Source: Octopus vulgaris (Eukaryota). Taken from it: 64,000 nt of DNA. Where the stretch lies: NCBI GenBank assembly GCA_951406725.2, contig OX597830.1:66030001-66094000 (forward strand), read 5' to 3'. Positions 5,905 to 51,705 of the stretch are shown here, piece after piece. Below the pieces are notes generated by a model. It had not been told where the DNA came from. It made no database searches and saw nothing but the letters and a program-made list of their open reading frames with translations. Position 1 is the stretch's first letter, and each line of letters opens with the position of its first letter. Made by a program: the position numbers and the translations under genes.

Positions 5905-7182
5905 ACTACCAGCATCACCCTCACCACTACCACAACCACCATCATCGTCATTGTCATCATCATCATCATCATCATCGTCATCACCACCAGCACCATCATC
6001 ATGATGTTAAGTACCACCATACCACTGGTATCACTCTGAATATTCTTTTAAAACCCACCCCACCTGCTACCCTCAGTAAGCAAATGCTGTTCTAAGGAGG
6101 GTTGCTGCCTTGACACTTGTGAACCATTAACCATCACTGCCACTTGCTGTGCCATTAACCACCAACCGTCCTTACCATTATGGTTGCCTCCTTCTCTTCC
6201 TGCAGAGAAAGAGAAATAGATAGAGAAGGGGCTGCAAAGAGAAAGAGAGAATCTCACATAGCACTCATCACACCACCACTACCATCACCAACACCACTAC
6301 CACCTTTAACACTACCACCACTACCTTCACCAACACTATTACTACTACCACCACCACCACCAACACTAATTCTACCATCACCACAGGCAACACTACCACC
6401 ACCTTTAACTCTACCACCATCACCAACCACCTCCTCCATCACCAACACAACCACTACTATCACCAGCACCACCACCATTGCCAGCATTACCACTGCTACT
6501 ACAGCCACCACAACCATCACTGACAACCCCACCACTACCAACACTAACACCATCACCTATGCTACCACCATCACCACTGCTGACACCACCATTGGGATGG
6601 ATTCTATCAACTTGCTAGAAATAGCAGTTAAATCCCCCTCTCATCATATCCTACTATTTTGACCATAGAAAGCATACATGAAGTCTTGAATACTTCTAGA
6701 AAGTGGGGGTGGTCATGGCTAGAATCATTGATCATGGGTCTGTTTGATGAGCTAACCTGGGGTTAAATATCAATACCACAATCACTACTTACTCCACCAC
6801 CGCCACTACCATCTCCATCTCCATCACTACCCTCACCATCAGCTTCTCCAGTACTATATCATCATCACCACTGCCACCATCCTCACCACCACTACCATAA
6901 TCTCTGCTAGCTGCTGCAGCAGCAGCAGCAGTAGCAGCACCGCCGCCACCCTCATCACTCCTAATAATACTTCCACCACCACCATCGCCACCTGTAGCAC
7001 CATCAGCATCTCCAGCACTATACCCATCACCTCCACCACAACCACCTCCACCACAACCACCTCCACCACAACCACCTCCACCATTATCAATACTACCATC
7101 ATAACTGCTAGCATCATCACCACCACCACCACCATCATCAATACTAGCATCACCACCACTACTACTACTACTACCAGTAATA

Positions 7183-7837: not shown

Positions 7838-9927
7838 GTATGTTGTTTTGTCTTTTTCTCTTTTACTCTCTCTCTTGCTCTCTGTCTGTCTCTCTTTCTC
7901 TCTCTCCTTTTGTTTCAAGGAATTAAGTTGATTAGTTTCATTAAGCTGATTAATTTATTTTCTGGATTTAGATGTAAGCAATCCCATGTGTATTTATTTT
8001 CTGAGGACTGTTGTTTGTTTCTTTGTTTTTACTTTATTCAATCATGTGTCACCTCCCACCCCACCCTCAACTCCACCATATCACACCACACACCTACTTG
8101 ACCAAACTTCAGCCAAATATTATCTATATTTTTATTAATCAACACCACCACCACCACCACCACCACACCACTGTCGCCGCCTTCACCCTTATCTATCTTT
8201 TTTTTTTTTTGAAAGGTGTAGTGAGGGGTGGCACTGGTTGGTTTGGATATGTTGGAAGTAATATAAACCCAGGCTGTTCAACAGACTCTAATAATAATAC
8301 TTATGTTTGCAGGAATGTATTTTCTGCTTTCACATGAATTGGTGTATTCTTAGACACTACTCACCTGCTGTTCTGACACAAGTAAAAAAATAATAAAAGA
8401 AAATTTTTTAAAAAAAAGCAAAAATTCTTGTAAAGAAAATCTACCTCTTCTAAATATTGTATGAAGTTTAATATAACACAAAACAAAAAGAAAAAGTTTT
8501 TTGTCTCTTTTTAATTTTTTTTTTTTTCAGAATCTGTTACGGTTCAATGATTGTTGTTATATATAATAATATAATACTAGTAGCATACTGGAAATTACTA
8601 AAGTTTATGCATCATCCTTGTTTTGATAGATGAGCCATTCAAAGGTGTGCAGTGGTTTTTATTTGTTTTCTTTTCTCACACTAAACTCTCACAGGTGTTC
8701 AACTAATTAAGATATACTGTATTTACTTGTGCTTCAGTTGCACTGGTGCATAAATTGTACCGTTAATTTAGTGTTAAATTTTGGTACAGAATTTTTTTTC
8801 CCTTCTCAGTTTTATTTCTGTTCCATATGTAAGTCACAAACCTAGGTGGTTTTTTTTTGTTGTTGAAATGAAATATCAAAACAGTGCAGTATATACACGT
8901 GTAAATGTAAATACAGTGCTTTATTAATAAGTTTGAAACACCAACAGTGTGTTTCTTACAAAATTACTGTTTAAGGAGTCAGTACCTAACACCAAGTCCT
9001 GCCCTGGTCAAGCTGACTTACAATCCAAGGTATTCCAACTGTGTCCACTCCAACTTTATTCTCCGGGTTGGGAGCCATGAGGCAGGTGTCATCAGGCACT
9101 GTCAGCATTGTAGTAGCATGTCCACTTCCCAGTCATTTCAACCTGCCTGGTACCCCTCTAAGGGTACTCTTCACCAAGTGTCTGAGGCAACCAGTGTGTT
9201 CATTGTGAAAAAAATTGATTATGACTTGGACTCTCTGGCAGCGGGGCATTTTGGGTGTTATATATTATATTATATAATTGTTTTGTTTGTTAGTTCAGAG
9301 TGGACCCCACCAGAATAACATTCTCCAATGTGTTTCCTTCTAAAATAGTAGGGTAGGATGTAATTTGAGAGAGATTTAACTGTTATTTCTATCAGGTTGA
9401 GTAAATAACATAGCGGCTCTCTCATTAAGCTCATCATTAAAGAGTATTTTATTATAGTGATTACCACATAACATTTTACCTGGGTAAATAAAATGGAATA
9501 TTTGTTATATTGATTTTATAATTTCTCTTAATTAGTGAAATTTCTTTACTGAAATTTTATTCAATAATTTTAGTTCCCTTATTTTCTCTTTTCATCTATT
9601 CCCATAACTTTTCCTAATTTTTATTGATATTAAGCTTTTTCGTTAAAGAAATAATCACTGATATTTAATGAAACCCTTGAGAGTCATTTTTCATCTAATT
9701 ATTCATGTTTATTCTTAAAGTTGCAATTTACATACTAACCCCTTGATATCAACCTGCTTGAGACAGCCCTGTTTTATGGTAAAAACTTCCGTGTTTTAAA
9801 GTCATCTAAATTAAGTAACCTTCCATCAAAATATCATTAATTTATGTTTCACAAAGCAGATTAATAATGACAAAATTATTTCATTATATATCAGTCTTTA
9901 TATTTTTTTTTTAATGAAAAAGCTTAA

Positions 9928-10265
9928 TCATCATCGTTTAACGTCCGTTTTCCATGCTAGCATGGGTTGGACAGTTCAACCGGGGTCTGGAAAGCCAGGA
10001 GGCTGCACCAGGCTCAAGTCTGATCTGGCAGTGTTTCTACAGCTGGATGCCCTACCTAACGCCAACCACTCCATTAGTGTAGTGGGTGCTTTTTAGGTGC
10101 CACCGGCACAGGGGCCAAAGTAGGCTGGCAACGGCCACGATCGGTCGGTGCTTTTTTACATGCCACCGACATGGAAGCCAGTCGGGGCGGCACTGGCATC
10201 AGCCACGTTCGGATGGTGCTTTTTACGTGCCACTGGCACAGGTATCATAACTACAATTTTCCATT
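9928..10265 (-). mobile_element. SINE family C (Ceph/RTE-type tail ending (GAT)n, internal GGCACGTAAAAAGCACC repeats)
   Basis: Reverse complement of GGTTGGCGTTAGG.AGGCATCCAGC...CATGGAAAACGGACGTTAAACGATGATGA; copies at 17588, 27435 and 36713. Confidence 0.75.
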
Positions 10266-17587: not shown

Positions 17588-17925
17588 CCATCATCATCAT
17601 TTAACGTCCGTTTTCCATGCTAGCATGGGTTGGATGGTTCGACTGGGGTCTGGTAAGCCATGAAGGCTGCACCAGGCTCCAGTCTGGTTTGGCAGTGTTT
17701 CTACGGCTGGATGCCCTTCCTAACTCCAACCATTCCGTGAGTGTAGTGGATGTTTTTTACATGCCACCGGCACAGGGCCAGAGGAGGCTGGCAAACGGCC
17801 GCGATCAGTTGGTGCTTTTACGTGTCACTGACACGGATGCCAGTCAGGCAGCGCTGTCATCTGCCATGTTTGGACGGTGCTTTTTACATGTCACTGGCAC
17901 AGGTGTCTCAACTATTTCCATTTGA
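17588..17925 (-). mobile_element. SINE family C
   Basis: Colinear with 9928-10265. Confidence 0.8.
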
Positions 17926-36712: not shown

Positions 36713-37080
36713 TCATCATCATCGTTTAGCGTCCACTTTCCATGCTGGCATGGGTTGGACGGTGCAACTGGGATCTGGGAAGCCAGAAGGCTGCACCAGG
36801 CTCCAGTCTGATCTGGCAATGTTTCTACGGCTGGATGCCCTTCTTAACGCCAACCACTCCGTGAGTGTAGTGGGTGCTTTTTACATGCCACCTGCACAGG
36901 TGCCAGACAAGTCTGGCAAACGGCCATGATCGGATGGTGCTTTTTACGTGCCACCGGCACGGAGGCCAGGCGAGGCTGGCAACGGCCTTGATCGGATGGT
37001 GCTTTTTACGTGCCACCGGCACGGAGGCCAGGCAAGGCTGGCAACGGCCACGATCGGATGGTGCTTTTTACGTGCCACCC
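36713..37080 (-). mobile_element. SINE family C with ~63-bp internal tandem repeats
   Basis: GATCGGATGGTGCTTTTTACGTGCCACC repeated three times. Confidence 0.8.
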
Positions 37081-37513
37081 AAATGTGGCTAGCCTTTAAG
37101 GGTCGCTGCTACTATAGCTTATAGCCCCAGGAATACATCTCCTCCAGCTGGCTATTGACACAGTATCTGTGCCCTATCAGTATTTGCAAAGGGAAGTCAT
37201 CGTTCCCATCTCCAGCCTGACGTGATACACATGGACCCGGGTTTCTGGGTATTGACCCATCATCAGCGTGTGACAACCACCGGTTGGCAATGGGAAATGG
37301 TTCTCAGTGCAAATATATATATATACTTTTCCCAGTGATGAAAAGTCACTGATCTTGAAAAAGTAGAAACAAGCAATAATGAATCTCTGAGCCAAATACA
37401 AACAGTAGCTGCACGACATCGTGAAGTATATTTACCACTTAAATGTGGATAACTCTTAAGGGTCGATGCTACTGTAGCTTGTAGCCCCAGGAAGACATCT
37501 CCTCCAGCTGGCT
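37081..37513 (-). mobile_element. Hammerhead-containing 360-nt unit with 73-nt direct repeats (retrozyme / Penelope-pLTR-like)
   Basis: 37081-37153 vs 37441-37513: ungapped, 8 mismatches in 73 nt; hammerhead motif inside. Confidence 0.75.
37222..37280 (-). ncRNA. Type I hammerhead ribozyme motif
   Basis: Minus strand GUGGU-UGU-CACACG-CUGAUGA-UGGGU-CAAU-ACCCA-GAA-ACCCGGGU-C-CAUGUG-U-AUCAC: full core, 5-bp stem II, palindromic stem III, GUC site. Confidence 0.88.
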
Positions 37514-37600
37514 TGGTAGTTAAGATAAATCCCAGCTGTTTCCTCTTGAAGCACATCCATTTATTCCATTTCTACAATCCAGTATGTAGTCACAGCTAGT

Positions 37601-37990
37601 GGAGGCGCAATGGCCCAGTGGTTAGGGCAGCGGACTCGCGGTCATAGGATCGTGGTTTCGATTCCCAGACCGGGCGTTGTGAGTGTTTATTGAGCGAAAA
37701 CACCTAAAAGCTCCACGAGGCTCCGGCAGGGGGTGGTGGTGATCCCTGCTGTACTCTTTCACCACAACTTTCTCTCACTCTTACTTCCTGTTTCTGTTGT
37801 ACCTGTATTTCAAAGGGCCGGCCTTGTCACTCTCTGTGTCACGCTGAATATCCCCCAGAACTACGTTAAGGGTACACGTGTCTGTGGAGTGCTCAGCCAC
37901 TTACACGTTAATTTTACGAGCAGGCTGTTCCGTTGATTCGGATCAACCGGAACTCTCGTCGTTGTAACTGACGGAGTGCTTCCACAACAG
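37601..37990 (+). mobile_element. OR-like SINE, tail type 3, full length and young
   Basis: Near identical to the reverse complement of 58528-58916; AGTCACAGCT / AGTCATAGCT flanks. Confidence 0.9.
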
Positions 37991-38489
37991 TCATAGCTGC
38001 TGATGTATGTTAGTCAAAATACATATTAAGTGAGAATTAGGGAAATATCAATTGTATAAAAAAAAACAGGATAACACCCACTTTCCTGTTTTGTTGTATA
38101 TATATATATTATTTTACTTGTTTTAGTCATTTGACTGTGGCCATGCTGGAGCAACGCCTTGAAGTGCTTTTGTTGAACAATTCAACCTCAGGGCTTATTC
38201 TTAAGCCTAGTACTTATTCTATCGGTCTCTTTGCCAAACCTCTGAATTCTGGGGATGTAAACACACCAATACCAGTTAAGGATGATGGGCAGAACAAACA
38301 CAGACACAAAGACACACACTCCTAGATACATACATATTTACATAATGGGCTCCTTTCAGCTTCTGTCTACCAAATCTACTCATAAGGCTTTGGTCGGCCC
38401 AAGGTGCCACACAATAGACTGAGCCTTTTTTGCCACACACACACACAATGAGCTCTATATTAAACACAGCTATACAATCTATACTCTCT

Positions 38490-39587: not shown

Positions 39588-42110
<2,523 letters not shown>

Positions 42111-51248: not shown

Positions 51249-51705
51249 AGGCGGCAATGCGACAGAATAGTTAGCACGCCAGGCCAAATTCTTAGCGGCA
51301 TTTCGTCTGTCTTTGCGTCCTGAATTCAAATTCCGTCGAGGTTGACTTCACCTTTTATCCTTTCAGGATCGATAAAATAAGTGCCAATGAAGCTCTTGGG
51401 TCGATGTAAGCGATTTCCCGCCATTGCCGGAATTACTGGCCTTGTACCAAAATTTGAAACCAATATATTTTGACAAGGCGAGTGAATTGGCAGAATCGTT
51501 AACACGCCGAGCAAAATATTTAGCGGCATTTCGTCCGTCTTTATGTTCTGAGTTCAAATTCCGCCGAGGTCGACTTCACCTTTCATCTCTTCAGGGTCGA
51601 TAAAATAAGTACCAAATGAGCACTGAAGTCGATATATTCAACTAATTTCCTCCCTTGAAAGTGCTGGCCTTGTGCCAAAATTCGAAACCAATATATTTTG
51701 GCAAG
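51249..51705 (+). mobile_element. Two tandem family B SINE variants
   Basis: Both end in TGGCCTTGT.CCAAAATT.GAAACCAATATATTTTG. Confidence 0.8.

Follow-up and report, generated by a model that had tools for sequence, protein, structure and literature searches.

A decayed copy of a hammerhead-bearing, probably retrozyme-like repeat family in the genome of Octopus vulgaris

Retrozymes with hammerhead ribozymes are already known from mussels, corals and salamanders. According to the accessible text of Cervera & de la Pena 2020 (PMC7229834), metazoan non-LTR retrozymes are units of about 170 to 400 nt with a GC content under 50%, and those of Mytilus galloprovincialis measure 350 to 390 bp. The cycle proposed for such elements starts with the transcription of tandem copies and hammerhead cleavage; a host ligase then closes the circle, and an autonomous element, probably a Penelope-like one, provides the reverse transcription, which extends over more than one unit (PMC7229834 and PMC7761336, accessible parts). 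The canonical metazoan hammerhead has 6 bp in helix I, 4 bp in helix II and 1 to 2 bp in helix III, which ends in a palindromic loop of 2 to 4 nt, while in the minimal motifs of Penelope-like elements (PLEs) helix I is short, A9 is followed by an additional base and the palindrome measures 0 to 2 nt (Cervera & de la Pena 2014, PMC4209133, available portion). For one PLE, the Poseidon element PAc, insertion was reported to be independent of cleavage (Frangieh et al. 2024, PMC11167929, accessible part). A survey of PLE-derived retrozymes names, in its accessible text, 31 vertebrates, three insects and one anthozoan but no mollusc (Li, Clavereau & Pollet 2026, 10.64898/2026.07.22.740005). Among cephalopods, 31 recently active Penelope families were described in O. 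vulgaris (PMC13282606, accessible part), and the giant squid genome gave 235 matches to the Rfam family hammerhead_1, with no element described in the available part of that paper (PMC6962438).

The locus described here occupies positions 37081 to 37513 of the window (the whole 64-kb stretch of O. vulgaris DNA analyzed) and consists of a non-coding repeat with a unit of 360 nt, present here in 1.2 units (433 nt); its RNA sense is the minus strand. Compared with the retrozymes of M. galloprovincialis and the axolotl Rtz_353, as far as these are described in the accessible text of PMC7229834, it has in common a non-coding 360-nt unit with a GC content under 50% and many copies, as well as a canonical type I hammerhead whose 2-bp helix III carries a tetraloop, together with the absence of LTR signs and of a short target site duplication (TSD). 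It differs in that the octopus copy comprises 1.2 units with a single, damaged hammerhead, a comparison made for the mussel family by description only. In the survey of PLE-derived retrozymes, dispersed monomers predicted to be inactive are, in its accessible text, common (10.64898/2026.07.22.740005), a situation similar to that of the octopus copy; for the octopus unit, however, a homologous pseudo-LTR was not identified. With the hammerheads of PLE pseudo-LTRs (pLTRs), including PAc, the locus shares the type I topology, the palindromic helix III, a partial tandem, inverted copies and an end point downstream of the ribozyme (PMC4209133; PMC11167929; parts of both). However, PLE motifs are mostly minimal, and the octopus locus is devoid of a reverse transcriptase/endonuclease (RT/EN) open reading frame (ORF).

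A first-pass annotation, made from the letters alone, had marked a pair of 73-nt direct repeats at the two ends of this locus, and they proved to be just as annotated. Positions 37081 to 37153 and 37441 to 37513 match without gaps at 65 of 73 positions with a lag of 360 nt; the chance expectation for a repeat pair of this kind in the whole 64-kb window is, in a rough estimate, 5e-19. After a break of 2 nt, the in-register match extends 4 nt farther upstream (37075 to 37078 versus 37435 to 37438). The GC content of the 360-nt unit is 44%, and no second copy of it was detected in the window by blastn or nhmmer. In the RNA sense (minus strand), the repeat at 37441 to 37513 is the 5' end and the putative end point of reverse transcription; that at 37081 to 37153 is the 3' end, the putative start of reverse transcription and the more decayed of the pair. 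The two repeats differ by 11%, and this copy departs by about 7% from the majority letters of the sequencing run X1 (30 of 433 positions, counting the listed variant rows only). Both repeats carry the same minority letter, at 37104 and 37464, which fits a single template. They also share an A at 37133 and 37493, where the majority of contigs aligned to the first repeat have a G. Among the listed rows, the differences private to one repeat (37106, 37114, 37121 and 37134 in the first, 37449 and 37454 in the second) fit decay from one template.

On the minus strand, positions 37222 to 37280 form a predicted type I hammerhead, comprising a distal helix I, an internal loop, a 6-bp helix I, the core, helix II and a palindromic helix III, with the predicted cut between 37234 and 37233. 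The core CUGAUGA lies at 37266 to 37260 and the GAAA at 37245 to 37242. Helix II (37259 to 37256 paired with 37249 to 37246) can be drawn as 4 bp with a 6-nt loop or as 5 bp with a 4-nt loop. Helix III has 2 bp closed by a 4-nt loop, and the 8-mer from 37242 to 37235 is a perfect palindrome, with a self-duplex energy of -14.9 kcal/mol; C17 is at 37234. In the proximal helix I (37272 to 37267 paired with 37233 to 37228), five of the six pairs are formed, and the single C.A mismatch is located at the second pair from the cut. A 3-by-1 internal loop separates it from the distal helix (37280 to 37276 paired with 37226 to 37222), whose pair probabilities range from 0.84 to 0.96. The minus-strand type I hammerhead proposed in the first-pass annotation is therefore present with its CUGANGA core, the GAAA, the UH, helices I to III and an open helix I. 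A strict scan that checks the helices gave this hammerhead as the sole match in the 64-kb window, and any match at all appeared in only 2 of 100 block-shuffled windows. A loose pattern was uninformative (16 matches in the window against a mean of 8.9 in shuffles). No Rfam family matched the motif, either at the gathering score or at E values up to 10, and the minimum-energy fold of the isolated motif is not the hammerhead. Judging by the helix sizes and the distal helix, the motif appears to be of the canonical metazoan type I and not of the minimal Penelope type. Variants of the PLE hammerhead were reportedly treated by Lunse et al. in 2017.

The hammerhead sits at the tip of an imperfect stem, the arm upstream of the ribozyme (37315 to 37282, minus strand) pairing with the downstream arm (37217 to 37181). 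Together, stem and helix I reach -30.8 kcal/mol, versus -21.2 (standard deviation, 3.5) with shuffled arms, a value attained by 5 of 500 shuffles. The whole monomer of this decayed copy folds no better than shuffled sequences, either as a linear (z of -0.85) or as a circular (z of -0.71) molecule. In a unit excised by two consecutive hammerheads, the flanking stem would keep the newly formed 5' and 3' ends close to each other, ready for ligation.

To find other copies of the unit, we turned to sequencing runs, among which 20 of the 24 listed (from 12 studies and with six organism labels) contain part of the stretch. Half or more of its words occurred in only two of the listed runs, and small shares in six. 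Contigs from four runs (X1, X2, X15 and X17, two of them small-share runs) were aligned at 80% likeness onto positions 37050 to 37597. All four consist of contigs; none of the listed runs with part of the stretch is recorded as RNA, and the designation of X15 and X17 as RNA is only a guess that was not used for expression. The number of matching contigs was 9,552 in X1, 5,215 in X2, 1,016 in X15 and 141 in X17, and 29 of 29 bins were covered in each of the four runs; contig counts and summed contig depth reflect many divergent copies and are not copy number. These alignments show that the unit belongs to a many-copy family. In the genome, viral and metagenome contig collections, a 24-nt motif of the repeat had no match. 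The hammerhead patterns likewise had none in the genome and metagenome contig collections, and in the viral contig collection they hit two similar loci that have only a 35-nt motif in common with the unit.

The letters found in most of the other copies tend to improve the ribozyme. The first-pass annotation would have been contradicted by a single-copy unit or by a hammerhead whose core and stem pairing were not conserved elsewhere. Instead, copies are many, helix I is restored in most of them, and none of the 40 variant rows listed out of 102 changes the conserved core. The variant at 37232, carried by 78 to 90% of contigs in the four runs, restores a G-C pair and so mends the helix I mismatch; that at 37277 (64 to 80% in all four) converts a G.U pair of the distal helix into A-U. 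A third, at 37240 (42 to 65%), alters the helix III loop, and a dimer would hold U.G pairs there. Most other copies have a C after CUGAUGA (37259, 56 to 82%), which would make the basal pair of helix II a C.A if 37246 does not covary. The axolotl HHR_Amex2 tolerates a U.U at the same place, according to the accessible text of PMC7229834, and the mismatch in the octopus family is possibly alike. Eight of the listed rows fall in the stem arms: five stabilize the stem singly, 37202 and 37297 jointly give a C-G pair, and 37208 (38% in X1, 66% in X2 and X15 and 0% in X17) breaks a pair. Combined, the eight change the stem by -10.2 kcal/mol, which 31 of 1,500 random sets of eight changes reached. 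Since the letters common elsewhere mend helix I and strengthen the stem, this copy seems to be a decayed version of a better-paired source.

Coverage along the unit was far from even. Summed depth varies about 100-fold, with a trough at 37278 to 37334; in X1 it peaks about 30 to 180 nt past the cut in the downstream direction, and immediately upstream of the hammerhead it is lower by a factor of about 100. In addition, the sequence upstream of the hammerhead is a different one in nine X2 and five X15 contigs. Because of this variation in depth and these diverging contigs, it may be that many relatives have only a portion of the unit in common, and such partial relatives would give the same depth picture as internal initiation with 5' truncation. 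Joints between opposite strands made up 5 of the 15 joints listed (84 in all); most were seen in single contigs, and the joint 37179/37280 was present in both X1 and X2. The dependence on PLEs proposed in the available portion of 10.64898/2026.07.22.740005 fits these opposite-strand joints.

Other copies do not stop at the 73-nt repeat. Beyond 37513, 74 contigs of X1, 47 of X2, 12 of X15 and 1 of X17 carry the letters that follow 37153, a continuation that, taken alone, could reflect contigs of the first repeat aligned to the second. One X1 contig, however, has a joint from 37468 to 37122 with at least 44 nt on each side and covers the end of the unit, the whole repeat and the start of the unit. 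Within the unit, summed depth is high to either side of the repeat (37411 to 37448 and 37145 to 37201), and it drops outside, at 37525. The first-pass annotation had expected tandem or permuted units elsewhere, and these copies indeed pass through the repeat from unit end into unit start. As other copies extend from the repeat into unit sequence on both sides, the 73-nt repeat is a head-to-tail junction and not an LTR. Among the pieces listed for the four runs, none had two hammerheads and none spanned the entire stretch. The 73-nt repeats lack TG...CA ends, no TSD was found at the locus, and a primer-binding site and polypurine tract were judged by eye to be absent. An LTR or TRIM reading was thus rejected, the repeats being no fixed termini and having neither TG...CA ends nor a TSD.

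The insertion is bordered on both sides by unrelated repeats. To the left (36715 to 37079, plus strand) lies a common interspersed repeat made of 62-nt tandem units and broken in mid-unit at the insertion; its internal units are variable in number, and other copies are found at 9927 to 10239, 17589 to 17900 and 31394 to 31134. At positions 37073 to 37078 (plus strand), 6 nt of this repeat are identical to the retrozyme-like family in register (37433 to 37438, taking the majority G at 37434, which has a frequency of 95% in X1); the left junction lies somewhere within 37073 to 37080. This is the end at which reverse transcription of a minus-sense RNA would start, which fits priming by microhomology; a later deletion fits equally. 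Deletion repair leaves microhomology just as typically as priming does. In PAc, the start site is not homologous to the target (PMC11167929, accessible part), whereas the octopus junction has the 6-nt microhomology. On the right (37514 to 37597), the insertion abuts a piece of another repeat family, other copies of which have a different left neighbor, without a TSD. A loose end before 37515 was seen in 26 X1 contigs of this right-flank repeat, and a TA-rich run precedes its other copies.

The coding capacity of the unit is negligible, in agreement with the initial impression that it has no convincing ORF. The longest stop-to-stop frame of the locus (102 amino acids; 37263 to 37571, minus strand) matched nothing in Pfam or PDB, and the frame opened by the AUG of the hammerhead core ends after 28 codons. 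We dropped the idea of a Penelope-like start codon at helix II, as most copies lack the U in question and the frame is that short one. In the 64-kb window, Pfam matches were absent from the 149 ORFs tested out of 219 candidates, and accordingly no RT plus GIY-YIG ORF was found beside the unit.

Taking these observations together, we consider it probable that this locus represents a copy, longer than one unit and now decayed, of a non-autonomous hammerhead repeat family of the metazoan non-LTR retrozyme kind. The retrozyme-like reading had already been put forward in the first-pass annotation, and the many copies, the better-paired hammerheads elsewhere and the continuity across the repeat speak in its favor. 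In the cycle that we propose, a head-to-tail source located elsewhere would be transcribed on the strand that is minus here, and successive type I hammerheads, acting either as monomers or dimerized via the palindromic helix III, would excise the 360-nt unit. Helix I and the flanking stem would juxtapose the new ends, and a host ligase would close the circle. A reverse transcriptase provided in trans, most likely Penelope-like, would then use a DNA end bearing the 6-nt microhomology as its primer, begin about 150 to 160 nt downstream of the cut, copy through the ribozyme junction and stop 73 nt past its start, leaving 1.2 units with initially identical ends that would have decayed afterwards. 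Since the copy includes the cut site and measures 1.2 units, a ligated circle or a tandem transcript left uncleaved would have served as its template, and the sequence data appear to fit both. With only one hammerhead, and that damaged, this copy is a dead end, which bears out the earlier remark that a single hammerhead could not release a monomer. A good-looking motif is no proof of the predicted cleavage either, since eight of nine predicted Xenopus retrozyme dimers showed no cleavage in vitro, according to the accessible text of 10.64898/2026.07.22.740005.

The features shared with PLEs could also be explained by a solo or internally deleted pLTR of an autonomous PLE, with truncated partial tandems produced from linear, uncleaved RNA, the hammerhead kept and no 360-nt circle formed. 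PLEs do form partial tandems and inverted truncated copies, and here the locus has 1.2 units and 5 of the 15 listed joints are between opposite strands. The depth peak downstream of the cut and the fall upstream resemble the internal initiation with 5' truncation of PAc (PMC11167929, accessible part), although summed contig depth is not copy number, and the contigs with other sequence upstream of the hammerhead would suit such an origin too. We nevertheless hold it unlikely. With its 6-bp helix I and distal helix, the hammerhead is canonical, while metazoan PLEs mostly have minimal motifs; the 149 window ORFs tested, out of 219 candidates, have no Pfam match; and the AUG, located 27 nt ahead of the cut site (as against 26 nt in PAc), depends on a U absent from most copies and opens a frame of 28 codons. 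Retrozymes may themselves stem from pLTRs, as suggested in the available portion of 10.64898/2026.07.22.740005, so the boundary between both readings is soft.

A remnant of a longer tandem array, namely a hammerhead satellite whose origin or growth took place at the level of DNA and which deletions trimmed later, would account for two flanks that are both broken-off repeats without a TSD. The microhomology would then be the trace of a deletion, for which it is equally typical, and the 11% difference between the 73-nt repeats would be no surprise. DNA-level tandem expansion has indeed been proposed (10.64898/2026.07.22.740005, accessible part). However, a dispersed, hammerhead-keeping family is still required, so that a trimmed array would change only the history of this one copy, and the opposite-strand joints and heterogeneous ends elsewhere point to retroposition; we find such an origin distinctly improbable. 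There is very little to recommend a TRIM-like miniature LTR element with true 73-nt LTRs, or a chance hammerhead-like motif in some other repeat. The two direct repeats around a non-coding core recall the former, but they have neither TG...CA ends nor a TSD of 4 to 6 bp, and other copies pass through the repeat on both sides. For the latter, Rfam does not recognize the motif and the hammerhead is not its lowest-energy fold, yet only 2 of 100 shuffled windows had a match and other copies pair better.

Neither the retrozyme kind nor the unit size is new, mussel retrozymes of 350 to 390 bp having been published (PMC7229834, accessible text). In the literature searched, which leaves most subscription papers outside its reach, we found no description of a cephalopod retrozyme, and the main text of PMC7229834, as accessible, has no match to "Octopus" or "cephalopod". 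The family may already be catalogued under another label in Repbase, Dfam, the Zenodo O. vulgaris repeat library or the supplements of papers. Taken alone, this copy is just decayed repeat DNA of an ordinary kind. A retrozyme family in the octopus would extend hammerhead retrozymes to cephalopods, with their repeat-rich genomes and active Penelope families. The reverse transcription and insertion of animal retrozymes are still a proposal, and a high-copy, dispersed family with readable junctions makes both testable from existing assemblies. Going further, we tentatively suggest, as a possibility that we would ourselves bet against, an abundant and mostly dispersed octopod retrozyme family in which a Penelope-type reverse transcriptase starts inside the ligated 360-nt circle, in a preferred zone about 125 to 200 nt downstream of the cut, is primed by short microhomology and reads through the junction, giving rise to permuted, truncated, more-than-unit and inverted copies that would document the step still missing from the retrozyme cycle. 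If this were true, thousands of junctions per genome would test circle insertion and the enzyme responsible directly.

The two viral loci mentioned above belong to IMG/VR contigs that are equal at 6,447 of 7,032 positions without gaps (L001:3501-3532 and L002:3501-3532). In both, the core is hammerhead-like and helix II has C and A at its base, a feature possibly shared with most copies of the octopus family; with its poor adjacent helix I, the viral motif may be a chance match or have another topology. As for the window itself, it is repeat-rich, animal-like DNA. Positions 51263 to 51705 hold 1.9 tandem copies of a 228-nt unit (79% match), where the strict hammerhead scan was negative, and a 2.1-kb (TA/TATG) microsatellite block at 39750 to 41873 yields spurious open frames of 500 to 740 codons. 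Next to the right-flank repeat, positions 37598 to 37986 (plus strand) contain a young SINE-like repeat, 96% identical over 389 nt to 58918 to 58530. By eye its head is tRNA-like, and ARAGORN found no tRNA in it. It is bounded by a probable 10-nt target duplication with one mismatch (37588 to 37597 and 37989 to 37998).
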